Of a DNA stretch of 64,000 nt, positions 1 to 16,727 are shown piece after piece. Position 1 is the first letter of the stretch. Each line of letters begins with the position of its first letter. The position numbers and the translations under genes are program-made. This stretch comes from a virus (Duplodnaviria; Caudoviricetes): positions 172,091 through 236,090 of the IMG/VR virus record IMGVR_UViG_3300005544_000020. The stretch is one strand, 5' to 3'. The notes below the pieces were generated by a model. That model was not told where the DNA came from and did not search any database. It worked only from the letters and a program-made list of their open reading frames with translations.

Positions 1-627
1 GACGACGGTCTTTAGAAGCGCCTTTTCTTCTTCCTCGCTCAGATCAAGCAGGGCTCTAGGGATAAATTCGCCGCCTAAAGGGCCTTCCCTCCGGAATACC
101 ATGAGCTCGGACCTTTTATCTGCCAAAAGGAAGAAATTGAGGCCTCTGGCGATCGCGCTGATTGTCTGGAGAACGCTCCAGTAGAAATCGTTGAGATAGA
201 CGCCCTTTCCCCCATACGATGCTTTCGCATCCGCGATGACCTGGTCGAGATTCAGCCATTCAGGAACGTATTGAGGAAGTTCCTGGGCTGCCATCCGGAT
301 GACGACATCATCCTTCATCTCGCGCCGGCTATCGACGTCCTGGTACATCATGCTCAGGTTGTCGATTGCGGTTTGGATGCTCTTCGGAAAAGCTAAGTCC
401 TTGGCCGATAAATCACTCATATAGGCCCGCGTGATCGCAGCGCCGTAAACGAAGCCAAGGCCATTCATGAACTTATAGGCTTTGTAATGATCTTCCATGT
501 CCGGCGTGAAATTACGGAATTCCTGAAGGCCGAGTTTTTCAAGATCCTTGGCGTTGGCCTCAAGATAATCCAGGTATTCCTGATAGGCCTCCGTTGCCAC
601 CTTCCCTAGGACCGCTCTCTTGCTCAT
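1..627 (-). CDS. hypothetical protein, helical, runs off the left edge
   Basis: Translated by hand: ATG at 627 overlaps the TGA of 624..1373 (ATGA); frame is open to position 1 (MSKRAVLGKVATEAYQEYLD...). Confidence 0.75.
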   Translation of the reverse strand, partial: MSKRAVLGKVATEAYQEYLDYLEANAKDLEKLGLQEFRNFTPDMEDHYKAYKFMNGLGFVYGAAITRAYMSDLSAKDLAFPKSIQTAIDNLSMMYQDVDSRREMKDDVVIRMAAQELPQYVPEWLNLDQVIADAKASYGGKGVYLNDFYWSVLQTISAIARGLNFFLLADKRSELMVFRREGPLGGEFIPRALLDLSEEEEKALLKTVV

Positions 628-1373
628 ATGGTCGGCCAGGATTCCTGGATATAACGCAGGAGGTCTTCCCGGGTCTTTCCATAGGTCCGATGATCCGTGG
701 CGAAATAGCCCTGCTTCACGGCCTCCCGCACCTCGGTCCACATCTTTATCTCTGGAACCCAGACCTGAATGAAGATAGCGGGTATCGGCCTTTCGATGAA
801 CCAATCGTCCGTAAGAGTGTTAGCCCGCTCGACATCGCCGACGTGAGCACTGTGAACTCGAAGAAGAACAGGATCTCCTGCGCTGATGTAATTGAGCGAA
901 TCGAAGGCCCACTGGATGTGCCGTACCGCTTGACCGATGATTCCAGTGAGATAGAGCTTGGGGTGCTCCTCTCCCGGTTCTTCATCTGGGATCAACCCAT
1001 CTTGGGCAATATTGGGAAGGTCTACCGCGAATGTCGAGTGATATAGCCAGCGACCGGTTCCAGAGGTCAAGGATTCTGGATGCGTCGCTTCGAAATGCTG
1101 ACCGAAGAGCGTCACGCCGCCAGGAGCGAAGGCAAGGACAGCCACGCCCTTGGCGAGCTCGTTGAAAGCCTTTGCCGTGTCGCCCTTCTTGGCGCTCTTG
1201 AAAAGGATGTTGTCACCCTTTTCGGCGACGTATTGGGAAGCGTGGGTGGCGATCTGCTGGAGTTCCGACCAGGGCCGCTTCTGGAACTCCATGATATTGA
1301 GAGAAACCGCCATCGGCAGCATGGTCTTGAGAAGGGCGCCGGAATCCATGCACTCGAGTATATCAGGCACCAT
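624..1373 (-). CDS. ADP-ribosyltransferase-fold protein (Tpt1/KptA C-lobe-like NAD-binding domain) with unknown N-terminal domain
   Basis: Motif order LYHST..LPNIAQDGLIP..KLYLT..A..PVLLRV..DDWFIERPIP..FI matches the ART/KptA-like strand pattern. Confidence 0.6.
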   Translation of the reverse strand: MVPDILECMDSGALLKTMLPMAVSLNIMEFQKRPWSELQQIATHASQYVAEKGDNILFKSAKKGDTAKAFNELAKGVAVLAFAPGGVTLFGQHFEATHPESLTSGTGRWLYHSTFAVDLPNIAQDGLIPDEEPGEEHPKLYLTGIIGQAVRHIQWAFDSLNYISAGDPVLLRVHSAHVGDVERANTLTDDWFIERPIPAIFIQVWVPEIKMWTEVREAVKQGYFATDHRTYGKTREDLLRYIQESWPTI

Positions 1374-1392: not shown

Positions 1393-1466
1393 TGGTGCTC
1401 CCGACGGGATTCGAACCCGTATGCGGACTTTTAGAGAGTCCTAGCCCGCCTTTGGCCCACGGGAGC
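1393..1466 (-). tRNA. tRNA with CUA anticodon (amber suppressor), CCA end encoded
   Basis: 74-nt cloverleaf: acceptor GCTCCCG/CGGGAGC, D-stem GGCC/GGCT with GG in loop, anticodon stem GGACT/AGTCC with loop CT-CTA-AA, 4-nt variable loop, T-arm ACGGG-TTCGAAT-CCCGT, A73, CCA. Confidence 0.92.
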
Positions 1467-1474
1467 AGGATAAA

Positions 1475-1798
1475 TCAGCCGATCACCCGATAGCGATTCC
1501 CGTCAGGGAACTCGATGAAGACACGATCCTGGATTCCGCCGGAAGTCTGGCCGCCGGAGCTAGAGGCTGGCTGAGAGATCGCCAGTTCTTCCAGCCTCTT
1601 GATTCCCGCTTCCCTAGCCTTCTTTTCCGTGGAGAACTCCTCCAGGTTGTACCACTCATTGGAGAATGTATCGTACCCGAGAAGTTTGAAGACGGCTTTC
1701 TTCTTCTTAGACGGAGCCGGTTCTTTCTCCTTCTTCTTGGGAGCAAGGCGTCCGATTCCGTTCCGCTTCTTCCATTCGTTGATCGACATCCAGGGCAT
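1475..1798 (-). CDS. hypothetical protein
   Basis: ORF track; start moved to the ATG after the GAGGAGG RBS. Confidence 0.7.
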   Translation of the reverse strand: MPWMSINEWKKRNGIGRLAPKKKEKEPAPSKKKKAVFKLLGYDTFSNEWYNLEEFSTEKKAREAGIKRLEELAISQPASSSGGQTSGGIQDRVFIEFPDGNRYRVIG

Positions 1799-1809
1799 GT
1801 CCCCTCCTC

Positions 1810-2421
1810 TCAATTGTCCCGGGCGAGTTCCTTGACCGCGATCTCCTTCAGAACAGGTTTCATGAAGACTTCGAATGCCGCGCTGGCCGTGGATAGCTGT
1901 TCTAGACTCACCGGACGCAGCGGTTCGATCTTGAGCACGGAGCAGCAGTCCCCGCAGATCGACAAGATCCCGCCGCCCATATCCACCAGCATCCGGAAAT
2001 CTTCCCGGATATAGGGTAGCGCATTCTTGCAGGTCTCCGCGCTCAGGACGAAGATGCAGCGCTCTTTGAGCCTGATCCTGTGCTCAGGAGCAAACGGATT
2101 GACCGGACCTCCGTGGATCTTCTCCTGTTTCTGCATTTCGATCAGGATCCGCATGAAGAACTCCTGCTGGCGCAGGCCGGTATTCATGCAGACCCAGCAT
2201 TTCGGCTGCATCGGATCGGAGGACCACTTGGGCTCCATCCGTCGCTCAAGCTTCTGGACGCTCTTCGCCTGGTCGACCGCCTTCTTCACGTCGAGCGCCG
2301 CCTTCTTCTCCATGACGCCTTCATGAACCTTGCAGGCTCGGTCTTCGCCACCGACGTGGTAGGTTGCGGCCTTGTTGACCGTCTGCTTGCAGATCGAGCA
2401 GACGACTTGCTTGATTGGCAT
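1810..2421 (-). CDS. hypothetical Zn-binding protein
   Basis: Several CxxC pairs; in operon context. Confidence 0.7.
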   Translation of the reverse strand: MPIKQVVCSICKQTVNKAATYHVGGEDRACKVHEGVMEKKAALDVKKAVDQAKSVQKLERRMEPKWSSDPMQPKCWVCMNTGLRQQEFFMRILIEMQKQEKIHGGPVNPFAPEHRIRLKERCIFVLSAETCKNALPYIREDFRMLVDMGGGILSICGDCCSVLKIEPLRPVSLEQLSTASAAFEVFMKPVLKEIAVKELARDN

Positions 2422-2422
2422 C

Positions 2423-3892
2423 TCAGCCTCTCAGTTCCTTCATCTTCTCAGGCGAATGGAGCGCCACGTTCACGAGCGCCGCGCCCAATCGGCAGCACTC
2501 GTCATGGAATGACGAGCTCAGGTGGTCGGATACCCGATAATGGCTGAACTCATGGATGAAGAGTTCATCCACCGCCGTCCAGTAGGGCGCGTCGAACCAG
2601 GAATGTCCTAGGCGCCCAAGGTTCAACGTCAGTTCCCCGGAAGGCCCGAAGGTCGCTGCGAAGGGCCAGGAGATATCCGTCACGATCTTGACCCGGATCT
2701 CGGTCGAGAGGATGTTCTTGGCCACGTACTTGGCATAGGCCACGATCTTCTTGACCCCCGGCGTCCACTTCTCCTCCGGAAGGATCTTCTGGGCTTCGCC
2801 ATTCGGAGAGTACGGCCGCGGCGACGGCGTCACCTGTCCCGCCGGCAGCGCCACAGCGAAGCGCTTGACGTTCGTCCACTCGTCTTTCGAAAGCGATCCC
2901 GGGGTGATCACTTCATAGCCCTGGGAGACGGCGATCTTGGTCCCTTCCTGGTCGGAAGGATCCATGATCACGCGCTTCTCGCTGAAGCGCTGGGTGATGA
3001 TGTGTTCCATAGCAGGCTTCGAGATGCTCTCGTCGGAGGCCGCATCGCGGGCCCAGGGCTCGACCGCTTCTTCAGCCGTGATCTCCTTGTACATCTCGTT
3101 CATCACGAGAGTCCGGATTTCGCGGAGATAGGCTGGGGTCACGTTGTCCCGGTCGGCATTCAGCGGGACCTTCTGGAGGACGTTGTAATGCCACTTGTCG
3201 CCGCCTTCCAAAAGGGCGACGACCGGGATGCCCATCTCATAGACCGAGGCCACTTCACCGACCTTGGCCTCGAAGATCTCGATCTGAGTCTTCCTGGCCG
3301 AACGCCGCAGGATGCCCTCGGCGTCCGCTACTTCCGTCGCGAGCGTCGCCTCGATCGTCCGGATGGGGGTCCGGGAAGAGATCAGGGCGCCGTTCACGAA
3401 GGTCTTGACCCCGCGCGGAGGGAGGAGCTTCATGACGGCCTGAAGCGCATCCTCGCGTTCCATCTGGTTCATGCGGATGCAGGCCCAAAAGCGAGAACCC
3501 GCGGCCCGCTTCGTCCTGAGCGTATGACGCCCGTCGACGTCGAACATGACGCCGCCGGTCGTCGTCTCGATCCGAGCCTGCTTGCAGAGCGCCAGAACCA
3601 GCTTCTCGCCCAGGTTGAAGCGGCCGCGCTTCTCCGCATTGCCCTTCTTTTCGCTCTCAGCATAGAGCGTCCAGGCATGGGTAAGATCCTTCCAGCCGTC
3701 CGGGTGATCGTCGATGACCTCGATCTCGGAGTATCCCTTGAGGTCCTCCGAGGCCTTGACCGTCACCATGATCTCCTTCGCATCCGTATCCCAGGCGTTC
3801 TGGATGAGCTCGTAGAGGACGAATTCCTTGCCTTTCCTCTCGAGAAGCTTGGCGAGGCCCTCCTTGTCGACGTCGAACCAGGTCTTGCTCAC
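2423..3892 (-). CDS. GHKL (HSP90/MutL-like) ATPase with C-terminal HExxH metallopeptidase-like motif
   Basis: ELIQNAWD (N box), DDHPDG (G1), RGRFNLGEK (G2), GSRF; C-terminal FIHEFSH. Confidence 0.75.
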   Translation of the reverse strand: MSKTWFDVDKEGLAKLLERKGKEFVLYELIQNAWDTDAKEIMVTVKASEDLKGYSEIEVIDDHPDGWKDLTHAWTLYAESEKKGNAEKRGRFNLGEKLVLALCKQARIETTTGGVMFDVDGRHTLRTKRAAGSRFWACIRMNQMEREDALQAVMKLLPPRGVKTFVNGALISSRTPIRTIEATLATEVADAEGILRRSARKTQIEIFEAKVGEVASVYEMGIPVVALLEGGDKWHYNVLQKVPLNADRDNVTPAYLREIRTLVMNEMYKEITAEEAVEPWARDAASDESISKPAMEHIITQRFSEKRVIMDPSDQEGTKIAVSQGYEVITPGSLSKDEWTNVKRFAVALPAGQVTPSPRPYSPNGEAQKILPEEKWTPGVKKIVAYAKYVAKNILSTEIRVKIVTDISWPFAATFGPSGELTLNLGRLGHSWFDAPYWTAVDELFIHEFSHYRVSDHLSSSFHDECCRLGAALVNVALHSPEKMKELRG

Positions 3893-4026
3893 TTGTTCTC
3901 CTTCCCTTTTCCCCAGAAAAACTTGGTCAGGCCAGCCTTGATGTTTTTGCGCTGTTCAACGGGCGCATCCGGTCGCGCCTTGTCGAATCCACGCATGATG
4001 ACCTTGAGAGTGGCGCGTTTCCTCAC
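3889..4026 (-). CDS. small basic hypothetical protein (45 aa), missed by the ORF track
   Basis: GTGA overlaps at both ends; MRKRATLKVIMRGFDK... Confidence 0.55.
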   Translation of the reverse strand: MRKRATLKVIMRGFDKARPDAPVEQRKNIKAGLTKFFWGKGKENK

Positions 4027-4397
4027 TCCTCGTCTCCCTTCTTGTTCGGATTATCGGGATGACGATCAATGCGGATCGCATACATGTTCGTCCGGCTGGC
4101 GACCTCGAGCAGATTATTTATGCTCTCGGCGACCGTCAGAGAATGCTTCTGCTCGAGTTCCTGGACTGCGGTGAAGATCTCCAGGCCGGGAGCGTCGAGA
4201 TCCGTCAGAGGCTTCCGGTCTTTCAGGTCTTCGACTTTGTTCGTCTCGAGCGCGATCTGGAGGAGAATTTCCACGATACGGTTAATCGTGAGGTCATATT
4301 TCTCCTCGACGCGAATCACGCTCATGTCGAGACTGCACTTCGCCTCGACCACGATGAAATAGCGCGGGTGGATTCGCATTCTTGCGGCTCCGATCAT
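4023..4397 (-). CDS. hypothetical protein
   Basis: ORF track; operon context. Confidence 0.65.
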   Translation of the reverse strand: MIGAARMRIHPRYFIVVEAKCSLDMSVIRVEEKYDLTINRIVEILLQIALETNKVEDLKDRKPLTDLDAPGLEIFTAVQELEQKHSLTVAESINNLLEVASRTNMYAIRIDRHPDNPNKKGDEE

Positions 4398-4443
4398 TTG
4401 TCCACTATCTTTTATCAGTTAAGGATGTCAGGACAGGTCACAA

Positions 4444-4599
4444 CTATTTCGGCTTCCAGTCTTTCCCGAAGAACTTCTTTCCGGCAGCTTCGATCCGCTT
4501 TCTGGTCTTGGCGGAGAAGTCGGAGATCTCGCGCACTTGGTACGGGCCTCCCGTGATAATGACGTCGACCGATCCCAGACGGATCTTCTGCTTCTTCAT
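4444..4599 (-). CDS. small basic hypothetical protein
   Basis: ATGA overlap with the Mom-like gene; ends in TAG. Confidence 0.6.
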   Translation of the reverse strand: MKKQKIRLGSVDVIITGGPYQVREISDFSAKTRKRIEAAGKKFFGKDWKPK

Positions 4600-5432
4600 G
4601 AGGCCACCTTGTCCGTGCTCTTGGGATACGCGGGGGACTTGGATTCCTCGCGAGCAGCGGCGAGAGCCGGACGCATGTGCTTGTCGAGCGCCCACGCGTA
4701 CTTGTGATTCCCCCCATGCTTGAGGGGACGGGTAACGAGCGGGAGCCAGTGGGAGAGCCACACAGCCGGAACCTCGTCCAGCGGGCCCGCGCCGTAGGAC
4801 TGGAGTTCCTGGACGGCGCCCTTCCAGCCCTGCTCCATCTTCCGGATCTTCTGCTCCGTGCGATGATTGAAGACGCGCCCATCCGGCAGCAGATGAAGGC
4901 GGCGTCCATCCGCGCGGCCGAGGTACGTGCCGGACAGCGCCTGATAGATCGTCCCGACGTGACCCGGAAGGACGATCTCGCCGGCGGCGGTCGCCCGGGG
5001 CATCGGATCGCTGAAGCTGACGACGCCCAGAACGCCGCGGAGTTCGCGGCCGGTGTCATCGACGATGACCTTTTTCTTGAGGGCGTCGAAGCAGCGCGCC
5101 AGGAACCACGTCTCGCCGTTCCCAGGAACCTCGTCGAGCAGGACGAAGCGGCCGAGTTCCGTGGCTTCCTTCCGATGGACCGGAAACACGTTCGTCAGGG
5201 TCCGGTCGTTCACCGGATGACTGAAGACCGCGACGCCCACCAGGATTCCATGACGGTAGAGGCCGTAGCGGAAGCGCGCGGCGGGGTAGTCGCCCGAGTA
5301 GTGGTGTTCCTGGACGAAGGCCTTGGGAATCTCGTCCGTGAGGATCTCCGCCACCTCGTACTCCGAGGGGCGGATCACTTCGCCGGACGGGCGCCAGCGG
5401 GCCCGGCCTTCCTCCCAGCGCTGGTTGAGCAT
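4596..5432 (-). CDS. Mom-like GNAT-fold DNA modification protein
   Basis: FVQEHHYS..YGLY...LVGVAVFS..ELGRFVL..NGETWFLARCF..VVSFSDP..GHVGTIYQA are typical Mom-family motifs. Confidence 0.75.
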   Translation of the reverse strand: MLNQRWEEGRARWRPSGEVIRPSEYEVAEILTDEIPKAFVQEHHYSGDYPAARFRYGLYRHGILVGVAVFSHPVNDRTLTNVFPVHRKEATELGRFVLLDEVPGNGETWFLARCFDALKKKVIVDDTGRELRGVLGVVSFSDPMPRATAAGEIVLPGHVGTIYQALSGTYLGRADGRRLHLLPDGRVFNHRTEQKIRKMEQGWKGAVQELQSYGAGPLDEVPAVWLSHWLPLVTRPLKHGGNHKYAWALDKHMRPALAAAREESKSPAYPKSTDKVAS

Positions 5433-5435
5433 GGC

Positions 5436-5801
5436 CTACGCCCCCATCCTGCGCTCGGCCTCGTAGATCGCGTCGACCTCGCGCAGGTCGCGGCGATGCT
5501 GGTAGTAGGCCTTCAGTTCCTTCTCGAGGCCTTGGCGCTTGCACTCTGCGGCGTCGACGACCAGTTCCACGCGCTTGCCCTCGCAGCGCTCGCACGTGAT
5601 GTCGTAGCGGCCCGAGAAGTAGCCTTCCTCGAAGTCCGGGTCGTCATCGAACTCTTCCTGGCCGATGCCGTTTCCGTCGATCGCGGGGTTGACGTGCTTG
5701 CCCTCGCCGTCGCAGCGGCTGCAGACCTCATACTTGGCCGGCAGCTCCACTTCGATCTCGCAGGTTTCCTCATCCAGGGTCGTGAACGTGATCGTCGCCA
5801 T
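5436..5801 (-). CDS. hypothetical Zn-finger protein (CxxCxGxG ... CxxCxG)
   Basis: CSRCDGEG and CERCEG; first gene after a strong promoter; ends in TAG. Confidence 0.8.
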   Translation of the reverse strand: MATITFTTLDEETCEIEVELPAKYEVCSRCDGEGKHVNPAIDGNGIGQEEFDDDPDFEEGYFSGRYDITCERCEGKRVELVVDAAECKRQGLEKELKAYYQHRRDLREVDAIYEAERRMGA

Positions 5802-5831
5802 ACCGCCTCTCCTTCCTATCGAACTGTTGAG

Positions 5832-5860
5832 AGTATATACTCAAGCATATACTCAGTCAA
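5832..5860 (-). promoter_or_regulatory. sigma70-type promoter, class A, with GAGTATA-N10-TATACTC operator
   Basis: TTGACT-N17-TATACT with an A/T-rich UP-like tract upstream. Confidence 0.8.
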
Positions 5861-5895
5861 TAGGTGAAAGCGGAATTCGAAAAAATAAATTCGGC

Positions 5896-6669
5896 CTACA
5901 TTTTCCAGTCAGCGACCTGTCCGGAATCCTGCCCTGCTTCCACGGCCTCGAGGACCTCGGCGATCTTGAAGTCCTTACGAAACGAATGGCCGATCTCCTT
6001 CTCGACGGCGACGTACTCCTTGAGCAGTTCCTTGTTCTCTTCCTGCTTTCCGGCCAGGACAAGCGCCGCCTTCGGCGCGAAGATGCAGAAGACGCAGGAG
6101 AGCCGCGGCATCCCGAGCGAGTAGGCGACGTGCTGTGGGATCGCATTCGCCTTGATCGTCTCCCAGACCTCTTCGATCTTCATGTCCAGGATCGGAAGCC
6201 AGTCGTCAACATGGCGGCGGCCGTTGGTCCGCCGTTCGTTGACCTTGAAAGGGACCTTTTTCGCCCTGGCCGGCGACTCCTGGGCCCTGAGACCCATCAC
6301 GTTCAGGACCTTGAGGCGGCGCTCGAGGCCGGGCGCCAATTGCGTGATCAGCTTGTCTATCGGCGCGCGTTTGAAGTCGCTCGTGCAATACCGGGCCATG
6401 GACGATGGCCACATCTTCCGCCGGCGGACGTAGTCCAGAAGGCCTTCGCCGCGGGTCACGATGTGGAAAGGAATTCCGAGCTGCTCGGCCTGCTTCTTCA
6501 CGACCGTATCCGCTCCCTTCCATTCTTCGCGGAAGGTGGCATGGCCTAGGACCAAGCGATCCTTGACGCCCTGGGCCTCCGCCATCTTGGTCACGTTCCA
6601 GGCCATCACGGAGGAGTCTTTCCCGCCGCTGGTGTTGAGCAGGACCAGGTCGTAGGCCGTGAGATCCAC
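5896..6669 (-). CDS. PAPS reductase-like (adenine nucleotide alpha-hydrolase) protein
   Basis: SGGKDS PP-loop, RYCTSDFK, GLRAQESPARA, RLSCVFC. Confidence 0.85.
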   Translation of the reverse strand: MDLTAYDLVLLNTSGGKDSSVMAWNVTKMAEAQGVKDRLVLGHATFREEWKGADTVVKKQAEQLGIPFHIVTRGEGLLDYVRRRKMWPSSMARYCTSDFKRAPIDKLITQLAPGLERRLKVLNVMGLRAQESPARAKKVPFKVNERRTNGRRHVDDWLPILDMKIEEVWETIKANAIPQHVAYSLGMPRLSCVFCIFAPKAALVLAGKQEENKELLKEYVAVEKEIGHSFRKDFKIAEVLEAVEAGQDSGQVADWKM

Positions 6670-14667: not shown

Positions 14668-15131
14668 CAGGCAGCCGGAACGGCCTCGTAACCAGGGACC
14701 TTGCCCTTCACGGCCTGGATCGCCTTCACCATGGCCATGAAACGCTCAGGGTCGAACTCCATGGACTGGAGCGCAACCGCCGTCGGGAGATCGAAGAGGA
14801 TCGTGCCGCGCTCCGTTAGGAAGGCCCGGTTCTCTCCGTCCTCGTAGATCATCTCGGCGCCTTGCCGGAGGCGGTCCAGGCGGATCTTCTTGGCCTCGTC
14901 CGCGATGAACTCGATGGTGTCGGCGTCCGCCAGATGTTCAGGATGCTCGTTGTAGTAGAGCGTCCAGCAGTCCCCGCACCAATAGCGCCCCTGATAGGGG
15001 CCAGCCTGGAATGGATCGCCGGCTGGGATGCCCGACTGAGGCACCTTCACCGGCGCCTCGCAGATGCCGCACCCGCGTTTTGCAGCGTTGATTTTGATCA
15101 GCGGAGTCTTGGGATCATCCAAAGGAAGCAT
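14667..15131 (-). CDS. hypothetical Zn-binding protein
   Basis: CGIC and CGDC; TGATG coupling. Confidence 0.75.
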   Translation of the reverse strand: MLPLDDPKTPLIKINAAKRGCGICEAPVKVPQSGIPAGDPFQAGPYQGRYWCGDCWTLYYNEHPEHLADADTIEFIADEAKKIRLDRLRQGAEMIYEDGENRAFLTERGTILFDLPTAVALQSMEFDPERFMAMVKAIQAVKGKVPGYEAVPAA

Positions 15132-15766
15132 CAGAGGCCTTCACGCAGGAAGTACTTGGTTTCTTGCTCATGTTCGGTATCGCTCGGACAGGAACGACGC
15201 CGGCGCTGGATCTCGATGAAGACGTCTGCGGCCGCCCGGGCATCGACGATCGCCCGATGGGAAGTTTCCGACTTGAGTCCGAAGAAGGCGATGGCTTCAG
15301 AAAGCTTGGGATATTTAGGGGAACCGTTATAGCGTGTTTCCAGGGCTCCCTCGGCTTCCATGATCTCCATGGCCATCAGCATGATGCAATCACCCCAGCG
15401 ATTGATCGGGGTGTTCCAGGGATCCTGTCTCAGGAATTGGCTGTCAAAAATGTTGTTGAAAGAGTGAAGCGTCGCTCCCCGGTGCCTCTCCACAAGCGCC
15501 TGGAAGCCCTCTGCCGCCTCCTGCGACCTCGGGGCGTCCTTGAGGTCCTCCGCGGTCAGTTTATTCACTGCCATGGCCTCTGGATGCGCTTTAGCCAGGG
15601 CCTCCCTGCCGGGATTGACGAGGGTGCCCCAACGCTCGATCTCAACGAGGTCTTGATCTAAGACGATGGCAGCTACCTCCACGATCTTGGAATTATAGGG
15701 ATTGCGCCCTGTCGTTTCAACGTCTGGAATAATGAATTTTAGCACGCTGGTCCCCGCTCTACCCAT
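15131..15766 (-). CDS. DEDDh 3'-5' exonuclease (DnaQ/epsilon-like)
   Basis: DVETTG (ExoI), HSFNNIFD (ExoII), HRAIVDA (ExoIII). Confidence 0.9.
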   Translation of the reverse strand: MGRAGTSVLKFIIPDVETTGRNPYNSKIVEVAAIVLDQDLVEIERWGTLVNPGREALAKAHPEAMAVNKLTAEDLKDAPRSQEAAEGFQALVERHRGATLHSFNNIFDSQFLRQDPWNTPINRWGDCIMLMAMEIMEAEGALETRYNGSPKYPKLSEAIAFFGLKSETSHRAIVDARAAADVFIEIQRRRRSCPSDTEHEQETKYFLREGL

Positions 15767-15786
15767 TGTAACCCATATATTTCGGA

Positions 15787-15814
15787 TTGACTAAGGAATC
15801 TTCGGCGTTATACT
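15787..15814 (+). promoter_or_regulatory. sigma70-type promoter antisense to the surrounding genes
   Basis: TTGACT-N16-TATACT. Confidence 0.65.
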
Positions 15815-15820
15815 TATAGT

Positions 15821-15930
15821 GCGATCGGGAGGCAGAACTCGGCGCCCTTGCGGGGTACCGAATTCTGTTTCCCCCTCTCTCCAGGGCCAGGCCGTCGAGA
15901 AGTAAAACTCGGTGGCCTGGCTCCTTTTAT
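15821..15930 (+). ncRNA. candidate two-hairpin small RNA
   Basis: 15/16-bp stem (15827-42/15858-73), 13-bp stem (15887-99/15908-20), then CTCCTTTTATTT; G-U wobbles fall on the plus strand. Confidence 0.55.
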
Positions 15931-15932
15931 TT

Positions 15933-16727
15933 CTAGACCGCTAGAGCCTGCGGAAACTCCTGAACCTGTAGATCCAGAGGCCATTCCGTCGAGTCCTTCC
16001 CTGCTATGTCCTTGCAATGCATCTCACGCGCCAAGACCGTGCCTTTCTGCTTGAAGTGGAAGGAAGCACCGGTCTCGCGACACTGTTTGAGGATGTCCCG
16101 GGCCCAGCCCGCATCCATCCGGCGCGCACCATGACCGCTTTCGCCGCCGACGACGGCCCAGCGCAGTCGATCAGGAGCCAGCCAGCGGCGGAGATCCAGA
16201 GGCCCCATGAGCGGCTCAGCCGAAAGCCAGTGGCAGACGGCTGGCACCTCGAGCAGCTCCGGGATCCGCTCATCGGCCCAGACCTGATTCGCCGCCGTCA
16301 CACCGAGCCAGACGTTCGGCCGCGGATTCTTGATCCATTCCGGCGGCAGCATGGTCTTGTAGTTCTTATGCCGTTTCGTGAGCAGGAGCCAGATCAGATT
16401 CTCCGTCTGCTCGATCAGAGGCCATAGCCGGGCCCGGCCTCCGTCGAGATCCCGGCGGTCTTCCAGGATGTCCGACATCGAAGCACAGAAGACGTAGGCT
16501 TTCGTGCCTGCCTTCGCCGCCGCCCGGTTCCAGCGCAGCGGATCATTCCAGTAATGATCGCCGTTCATCTTGCGGGGAGCCTTCTCACCCCACAGCTCAT
16601 GCCCGAGCCGCTTGCTGAAGTCCCTCGCATAGCAATGGGAACAGGCGGGATCCTCCGGGACTTCATCGCACCCCCACCAAGGAGAGAAGGTATGATCGGT
16701 CCACGAAATCTTGCTGTCCTTACCCAT
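15933..16727 (-). CDS. DUF5131 (phage Gp37/Gp68) family protein
   Basis: SKISWTDHTFSPWWGC..CSHCYA, VFCASMSD, WLLLTKR, SAEPLMG, VVGGESG, FHFKQKG. Confidence 0.9.
   Translation of the reverse strand: MGKDSKISWTDHTFSPWWGCDEVPEDPACSHCYARDFSKRLGHELWGEKAPRKMNGDHYWNDPLRWNRAAAKAGTKAYVFCASMSDILEDRRDLDGGRARLWPLIEQTENLIWLLLTKRHKNYKTMLPPEWIKNPRPNVWLGVTAANQVWADERIPELLEVPAVCHWLSAEPLMGPLDLRRWLAPDRLRWAVVGGESGHGARRMDAGWARDILKQCRETGASFHFKQKGTVLAREMHCKDIAGKDSTEWPLDLQVQEFPQALAV

Follow-up and report, generated by a model that had tools for sequence, protein, structure and literature searches.

A tRNA gene with the anticodon CUA lies in the 64,000-nucleotide stretch of DNA analyzed here (the window), which is the final 64 kb of the 236,090-bp IMG/VR record of a Caudoviricetes virus (IMGVR_UViG_3300005544_000020, estimated to be 90% complete; the window starts at genome position 172091). 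The tRNA is of the amber suppressor type, and a gene just outside the window, belonging to the PTH2 family, is interrupted by an in-frame TAG within its first codons. The two probably form a conserved two-part phage module, in which the tRNA serves as a private read-through gate for one gene rather than as an instrument of recoding. We infer that the tRNA is expressed and charged, and that it decodes the UAG of the gate. The two components are:

Window positions 1393-1466, minus strand: tRNA gene with anticodon CUA (amber suppressor type) and an encoded CCA, recognized by ARAGORN, Rfam and covariation.
Genome positions 169979-170335, minus strand: amber-gated PTH2-fold gene, 118 codons in all, with the TAG at 170321-170323.

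The tRNA gene is genuine and has been maintained by selection. It is the only tRNA that ARAGORN reports anywhere in the window (1393-1466, minus strand, anticodon CTA), and a local scan with Rfam family RF00005 covers 1396-1466 from end to end (model positions 1-71 of 71; 54.2 bits, E 5.6e-11). Read directly, the gene has a 7-bp acceptor stem with G1-C72, a 4-bp D stem with a 7-nt D loop, a 5-bp anticodon stem, a 7-nt anticodon loop (C-U-CUA-A-A, with U33 and a purine at position 37), a variable region of 4 nt and a 5-bp T stem with the T loop UUCGAAU, followed by A73 and the encoded CCA. The complete cloverleaf given in a preliminary description of the window, with its CT-CTA-AA loop, G1-C72, A73 and CCA, is thus borne out. 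A gathering-threshold Rfam scan of the whole window missed the tRNA, presumably through a filter effect, and the minimum-free-energy fold of the tRNA alone is not a cloverleaf, a measure that is uninformative for tRNAs. A blastn search of deposited phages returned only matches of the 3' half to a Klebsiella phage tRNA-Glu (81% identity), which are no evidence of identity.

The same anticodon loop occurs in 50 distinct CUA tRNAs from related loci, which excludes the sequencing error in the anticodon that the preliminary description had allowed for. Among 12 aligned members of the family, the loop CUCUAAA is invariant and 252 of 252 stem cells are paired, with compensatory changes in 15 of the 21 stem pairs; 0 of 500 shuffles were as good, and only 35-50% of cells paired in a control in which the pairing partner was shifted along the alignment. 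The acceptor pairs G1-C72, C2-G71, C4-G69 and C5-G68 are also invariant. The discriminator base is not fixed (the 3' ends of the 50 tRNAs include 23 ACCA and 11 GCCA), and this weakens an earlier argument that A73 points to charging with lysine. A phage tRNA-Arg is the nearest neighbor of the CUA tRNA bodies in 31 of 50 cases, which is a lead only, given a small reference set and an anticodon mask that was one column off; no arginine anticodon lies within one mutation of CUA.

Could the tRNA be a decaying or accidental variant without function, with the TAG marking a pseudogene? Phage tRNA genes turn over quickly, and this is the sole standard-shaped tRNA in the whole genome, the only others being odd tRNA-like genes ~3.6 kb away. 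Against decay, the CUA loop and the TAG are kept among loci whose proteins share 34-40% identity, the stems are compensated, and the open reading frame (ORF) is intact past the TAG. Decay is the least probable of the explanations considered here. ARAGORN labels the gene "Pyl," a label that follows the anticodon only, and a tRNA-Pyl identity was rejected: tRNA-Pyl has a 6-bp anticodon stem, a 3-nt variable loop and a small D loop, whereas the tRNA here has 5 bp, 4 nt and a 7-nt D loop, the shape of an ordinary cloverleaf.

TAG is a working terminator in this genome, which uses the standard code and is not recoded. Genes were called under four codes with our own codon-usage gene caller (first start codon, 50-aa minimum), which is crude, such that absolute densities are approximate. 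Code 11 gives 373 genes at a coding density of 0.828; with TAG as sense (code 15) there are 309 genes at 0.787, and density falls in most 10-kb bins. Code 15, code 4 and TAA-as-sense are each ruled out by coding density. The stops under code 11 are TGA for 198 genes, TAA for 87 and TAG for 87 (~23% TAG). What follows a TAG resembles what follows a TAA: the median in-frame extension is 42 versus 43 codons, coding-like extensions are seen for 24/87 versus 25/87 and are explained by next genes in the same frame, and the median distance to the next gene start is 18 versus 16 nt. The statement in the preliminary description that TAG is still a stop therefore holds genome-wide. Its companion statement, that no gene needs TAG as sense, is correct inside the window but not for the whole genome, where the single gene at genome 169979-170335 on the minus strand needs it.

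These data bear on a first alternative, namely general or incipient recoding, with partial read-through of many TAGs that would extend proteins, disturb the host, or represent a step toward code 15. A few standard-code phages near recoded ones hold suppressor tRNAs, which have been read as possible precursors of recoding (10.1101/2021.08.26.457843), and the genome here encodes release factor 2 (RF2), as do some TAG-recoded phages. Set against this are the undepleted TAG, the lack of extra back-up stops, the fall in density under code 15, the equivalence of extensions after TAG and TAA, and the restriction of sense TAG to one gene. In addition, the GC content of the genome is 58%, unlike that of the low-GC relatives of recoded phages (10.1101/2021.08.26.457843). 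Recoding is improbable on balance. The possibilities that the preliminary description had raised for the tRNA fare differently. Early-stage recoding finds no support in these numbers, nor does any observation bear on host disruption, and diffuse or "timed" read-through does not fit a target that is one conserved gene with an amber codon at position 5. Read-through as a regulatory device is, in our judgment, the best reading of a real CUA tRNA in a standard-code virus.

The gene that needs TAG as sense was identified by an unbiased scan in which, for each called gene, the distance from the upstream in-frame stop to the first ATG, GTG or TTG was measured and the coding potential scored. The 373 genes include one outlier, called at genome 169979-170197 on the minus strand, with 41 startless coding-like codons after a TAG. 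The frame reads ATG AAC GAA ACG TAG GTC GCC GCC CCC AAG AAG TAC GTC TAC ATC GGC ATC CGA ACC GAC CTC and onward (product M-N-E-T-UAG-V-A-A-P-K-K-Y-V-Y-I-G-I-R-T-D-L), such that the UAG is codon 5, and there is no alternative start codon ahead of the conserved core. A direct scan of the genome for a start codon followed by 1-7 codons, a stop and a long ORF found no second amber-gated gene. The gated gene is on the strand of the tRNA and 3160 nt downstream of it, which places the gene ~1.8 kb ahead of the first window position. Between the two is a promoter-like site, TTGACA-N17-TAGTCT (positions 6340-6375 of locus L002, minus strand), with the ATG of the gated gene 7 nt past the -10-like hexamer. 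A sigma-70 scan did not flag this site (the -10 fits 3/6 positions), and its only support is its conservation across loci (L004, L007, L008, L030, L031, L033 and L036). The start codon is also 7 nt past the -10-like element in L030, L007 and L033; this spacing suggests that the mRNA of the gated gene may be leaderless. Other lineages instead have TTGACA-N17-TATAAT and a ribosome site.

The gate is a conserved property of the gene family. Homologous genes were collected at 97 loci (14 from IMG/VR, 80 from metagenomes and 3 via homologous proteins), and 95 of these have an in-frame TAG just upstream of the conserved core, at about codon 2-8. The exceptions are L106, which has a plain ATG and no TAG, and one locus that is cut at its edge. 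In every gated locus, the TAG is preceded by an in-frame start codon 1-7 codons upstream, most commonly in a leader of the form M-T-TAG or M-x-x-T-TAG, and mostly with a strong ribosome site of the AGGAGG type. The codon before the TAG is Thr in 49 of 70 non-redundant gates. In the same set, the base after the TAG is G in 58 cases and A in 11, such that a purine follows 69/70 gate TAGs versus 61/87 terminator TAGs of the genome (Fisher p 7e-7). A purine after UAG is the context rule for good suppression, and the gate context fits this rule; the bias may be owed partly to the Glu or Val codons that usually follow. Two variations on the arrangement were seen. First, the gated gene of L015 (4989-5303) also ends in TAG, making one codon both gate and terminator. 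Second, in L019/L020 (4916-4992), a tRNA-Met(CAU) with a mismatched 1-72 pair and an initiator-like look lies directly upstream of an M-S-TAG gate; the contig of this lineage, 31% complete, yielded no CUA tRNA.

The CUA tRNA and the gate are linked. Of the 47 non-redundant loci that have at least ~1.2 kb of flank on both sides, 37 contain a CUA tRNA called by ARAGORN, usually either 31-120 nt upstream of the TAG or ~700-820 nt downstream. Two further loci yield a CUA tRNA beyond the ARAGORN calls, one 6.9 kb upstream and one with an 8-nt loop. The tRNA is on the same strand as the gated gene in 49/49 cases. The association was also tested in reverse: 21 of 71 IMG/VR loci chosen solely for a CUA tRNA hold a nearby PTH2-like gene, most with an early stop. 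A relative that is syntenic with the window, sharing the PAPS (3'-phosphoadenosine 5'-phosphosulfate) reductase, Mom, ATPase and ADP-ribosyltransferase (ART)-like genes in the same order, lacks both the tRNA and the PTH2-like gene.

A different explanation of the leader is that it is a real mini-ORF or upstream ORF, with the hydrolase either made by non-standard re-initiation or hardly made at all, and the tRNA unrelated, serving, for example, as an anticodon-nuclease decoy. The lambda bar minigenes, whose effect depends on peptidyl-tRNA hydrolase, have this architecture, in which a strong ribosome site precedes an ORF of 2-4 codons. Moreover, the gated gene has its own promoter-like site, separate from the tRNA, and an internal GTG is taken as the protein start by several gene callers; the 106-aa "full-length" proteins in databases begin there. 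There are four observations on the other side. First, leader and core share one reading frame at all loci examined. Second, its stop is TAG in 95/96 informative loci and never TGA, and the single TAA case has a normal ATG. Third, in most gated loci the stretch from the TAG to the conserved first strand contains no ATG, GTG or TTG, and the internal GTG is GTC (Val) in the phage studied here. Fourth, the matching tRNA is always on the same strand. We consider this explanation about as improbable as recoding.

It could also be argued that UAG encodes a special, non-standard residue needed by the enzyme, as in pyrrolysine systems. The ARAGORN "Pyl" label would point that way were it not a reflection of the anticodon alone, and the strongly conserved acceptor stem could mean a dedicated charging enzyme. 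Such a residue would have to be tolerated at variable positions, with a TAG-to-core distance of ~8 to >20 residues, in a leader that is otherwise unconserved and is modeled with low confidence. The tRNA does not have the tRNA-Pyl shape, and profile searches of the genome, extending beyond the window as the preliminary description had proposed, found an RF2 gene and no member of the GlnRS/GluRS, class II LysRS or ArgRS families (PylS was not searched for). A special residue is very improbable. Rather, because the TAG-to-core distance varies and the leader is unconserved, the identity of the residue inserted at the UAG is probably immaterial.

What does the gated gene encode? A model of the read-through product, built from an alignment of 24 relatives, has a mean predicted local distance difference test (pLDDT) score of 89.3, the leader being the low-confidence part. 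It matches archaeal and eukaryotic Pth2 structures (1wn2, 1q7s, 2zv3, 3erj and 1xty, with Bit1 among the matches) with template modeling (TM) scores of 0.66-0.73, and PTRHD1 with a TM score of 0.80, all at probability 1.0. Pfam PTH2 (PF01981) is matched by 20 of 24 relatives in the family (best E 1.2e-5), and the family profile matches a peptidyl-tRNA hydrolase chain in the PDB (E 0.0065). In the alignment, D82 is invariant and corresponds to the Asp of the Pth2 "DAG" segment, and a Gln stands opposite the Lys of the Pth2 "GK" segment. The product is thus modeled as a divergent PTH2-fold protein whose hydrolase activity is putative.

The module is also present in cultured phages. A tblastn search of deposited phages found the PTH2-like gene, often unannotated or truncated, in 24 jumbo-phage records, with hosts in Acinetobacter, Cronobacter, Serratia, Yersinia, Erwinia, Pectobacterium, Xanthomonas and Ralstonia. 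For example, Acinetobacter phage vB_AbaM_ME3 has an M-T-TAG leader, with a gene annotated as "tRNA-OTHER, anticodon CTA" ~450 nt upstream; the ME3 genome note does not discuss the tRNA-gate pair. In Cronobacter phage GAP32, the leader is M-A-Q-TAG, and the best match to the CUA tRNA model (70.9 bits, anticodon CUA) is 3.1 kb downstream. XacN1 has an ungated PTH2-like copy and two CUA tRNAs.

There are observations that weigh against a private gate. Efficient reading of UAG should be costly to a genome in which 23% of genes end in TAG, and no back-up-stop adaptation is seen. About 10 of the 47 well-flanked loci have no CUA tRNA within 6 kb. Conversely, ~70% of sampled phage CUA tRNAs lack a PTH2-like gene in the fetched stretch, a proportion that favors general recoding, and some PTH2-like genes beside CUA tRNAs, including that of XacN1, are ungated. 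In the phage studied here, 3.2 kb separates the tRNA from the gate and the two belong to different transcription units, and the phage's own PTH2-like protein has no Pfam match at E values up to 1. With these points taken into account, a gate operated by the CUA tRNA remains the probable explanation.

How would such a gate work? A ribosome initiating at the ATG would reach the UAG after four codons. Release factor 1 (RF1) and charged tRNA(CUA) would then compete, the former yielding only a tetrapeptide and the latter the full hydrolase-like protein. Thus, the amount of enzyme would track the ratio of active suppressor tRNA to termination at UAG. The rest of the genome keeps its TAG terminators, such that the tRNA would function as a private gate and not as a change of code. 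Because the phage genome lacks Gln/Glu, class II Lys and Arg synthetase genes, charging of the tRNA would fall to a host enzyme. The purpose of the gate may be dosage matching or feedback, a proposal that we make only tentatively. Specifically, the more active the suppressor, the more peptidyl- or aminoacyl-tRNA product the hydrolase could clear; alternatively, its substrate could be the suppressor itself, which would hold read-through low.

A second site in the genome may depend on the decoding of UAG. The gene concerned is:

Genome positions 15054-16007, minus strand: RF2 gene (prfB model, 369.5 bits), extending over 15054-16122 (L110 1420-2488) with its N-terminal part.

The N-terminal 23 codons of RF2 are in another frame and end in GAGGAG-UCG-CUU-UAG-C, from which the +1 frame is continuous with the RF2 body. 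This site has all the elements of the prfB +1 frameshift (Shine-Dalgarno-like sequence, 3-nt spacer, CUU, stop and C; the canonical elements are listed in PMC13245932) except that UAG stands in for UGA. Among four sampled relatives, the frameshift stop is UAG in L111 and L114 and UGA in L112 and L113. All five RF2s have S-(R/D/E)-F in place of the SPF tripeptide with which RF2 reads stops. The RF2 gene itself terminates in TAG, precisely where the prfB profile runs out (353/353), in keeping with TAG as a working terminator. If the UAG at the frameshift site were read in frame, the ribosome would meet a stop 11 codons on, so suppression would be expected to lower RF2 output. Five cassette-bearing relatives, one of them 97% complete, have no release-factor genes; therefore, RF2 is a lineage-specific addition and not an obligatory partner. 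A search of viral contigs with the RF2 sequence as a single query gave no match. Together, the tRNA, the gated hydrolase and the RF2 UAG site could constitute a circuit that measures and sets UAG decoding in the infected cell, with suppression raising hydrolase output and lowering RF2 output. Such a circuit might provide controlled, low UAG read-through, or sense the loss of host RF1 or tRNA function, without a change of code. This larger proposal is rather unlikely to be right as it stands.

The tRNA is located within a long string of minus-strand genes, such that it is probably excised from a polycistronic transcript. Its immediate neighbors are:

Window positions 1475-1813, minus strand: 112-aa ORF directly upstream of the tRNA, with its stop 8 nt before the tRNA 5' end; no Pfam family.
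Window positions 624-1373, minus strand: 249-aa ART-like ORF, with its start 19 nt past the tRNA 3' end; no Pfam match.
Window positions 1-804, minus strand: 5' part of a 444-aa ORF that continues beyond the window (complete at L002 7560-8894, minus strand), the second of the intervening genes; no Pfam or Atlas lead.

The model of the 249-aa ORF has a pLDDT of 84.7, and its top 19 Foldseek matches in the PDB are all Tpt1/KptA, over ~100 residues (E 4e-3 to 8e-2). The C-terminal half resembles the NAD-binding ART domain of the tRNA 2'-phosphotransferase Tpt1/KptA and has a YHST motif, and the Atlas leads for this ORF are to ADP-ribosyltransferase families only, with scores <0.9. The protein may be an RNA-end-modifying or ADP-ribosylating enzyme.

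Past the window edge, the order is a GNAT acetyltransferase (118 aa), a 298-aa ORF, the promoter-like site, the amber-gated PTH2-like gene and four tRNA-like RNAs. Four genes separate the tRNA from the gated gene, both here and in the 92%-identical relative L030. The four tRNA-like RNAs end in CCA and directly follow the PTH2-like gene (genome ~169652-169971, minus strand; L002 5652-5971). Two of the four match Rfam tRNA (55 and 49 bits), and they have a longer hairpin in place of the anticodon arm. Comparable "tRNA-???" calls after the gene are confined to the closest PTH2 subfamily (L003, L007, L008, L030-L036 and L043-L045). These RNAs could be substrates of the PTH2-like enzyme.

Farther into the window, positions 2423-6669 on the minus strand hold a string of probable DNA-modification genes, whose order is kept in the relative L238:

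Window positions 2423-3892, minus strand: GHKL/MORC-type ATPase (HATPase_c_3), 489 aa.
Window positions 4596-5432, minus strand: Mom-family protein (E 9.5e-19).
Window positions 5896-6669, minus strand: PAPS-reductase/PP-loop protein.

Genes of the TnpB type are found near related loci. An IS605 OrfB/TnpB-family gene (L003 8511-9750) ends ~60 nt before the CUA tRNA of a 175-kb contig, and another relative of the ART-like gene has a Cas12f/TnpB-like neighbor. These genes may be relevant to mobility of the module.

Several known systems resemble the proposed gate in part. First, phages recoded to code 15, in which TAG is read as Gln (crAss-like phages, Lak phages and others), carry a tRNA(CUA) and in some cases RF2, and in-frame TAGs have been proposed to regulate the translation of particular genes in such phages (10.1101/2021.08.26.457843). 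The phage described here shares with them a phage-borne, presumably host-charged tRNA(CUA). It differs in that the code is standard, TAG ends 23% of genes and one gene has an in-frame TAG; moreover, that TAG is always in the first few codons, and the same gene family is affected in dozens of unrelated phages. Second, PTH2 of jumbo phages has been proposed to act in ribosome rescue after tRNA cleavage (Iyer et al. 2021, PMC7824862). The protein family and the kind of phage are the same, and in both cases the gene lies among tRNA and RNA-repair genes; the term "suppressor" is absent from that account, and so is any early amber codon. Third, as in prfB autoregulation, an early in-frame stop makes output depend on the decoding of a stop codon. 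However, in prfB the ribosome gets past the stop by a +1 frameshift and the product that is sensed is that of prfB itself, whereas the gate is proposed to use a dedicated in-frame tRNA and to yield a hydrolase-fold product. Fourth, laboratory amber suppressors of the supE, supF and supD type have a canonical tRNA body with CUA in a 7-nt loop, as does the tRNA here, and compete with RF1, as it would. These are single-step mutants of host tRNAs, whereas the phage CUA tRNAs are an old, diversified family. Neither full-text literature searches nor 10.1101/2021.08.26.457843 yielded an account in which an amber-gated PTH2 gene is paired with a suppressor tRNA. The present analysis contributes the split arrangement, the genome-wide negative scan for further gates, the reverse association test, the GAP32 and ME3 cases and the RF2 observation.

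What are the implications for phages that carry suppressor tRNAs? First, annotation is corrected for a PTH2-like gene that is truncated or missed in public records, including those of ME3 and GAP32. Second, ME3 and GAP32 grow on laboratory hosts, so the inserted residue, the level of read-through and the substrate of the enzyme are directly measurable. Third, the module would be a natural example of the pairing of an orthogonal tRNA with an amber-gated gene, a design built by hand in synthetic biology. Fourth, if the circuit that includes RF2 were true, it would amount to a natural, portable sensor of suppression, and "orphan" phage suppressor tRNAs would gain a defined job. Even with the tRNA and the gated gene alone, the suppressor tRNAs of standard-code phages, read so far as noise or as forerunners of recoding, would gain a concrete and testable role.
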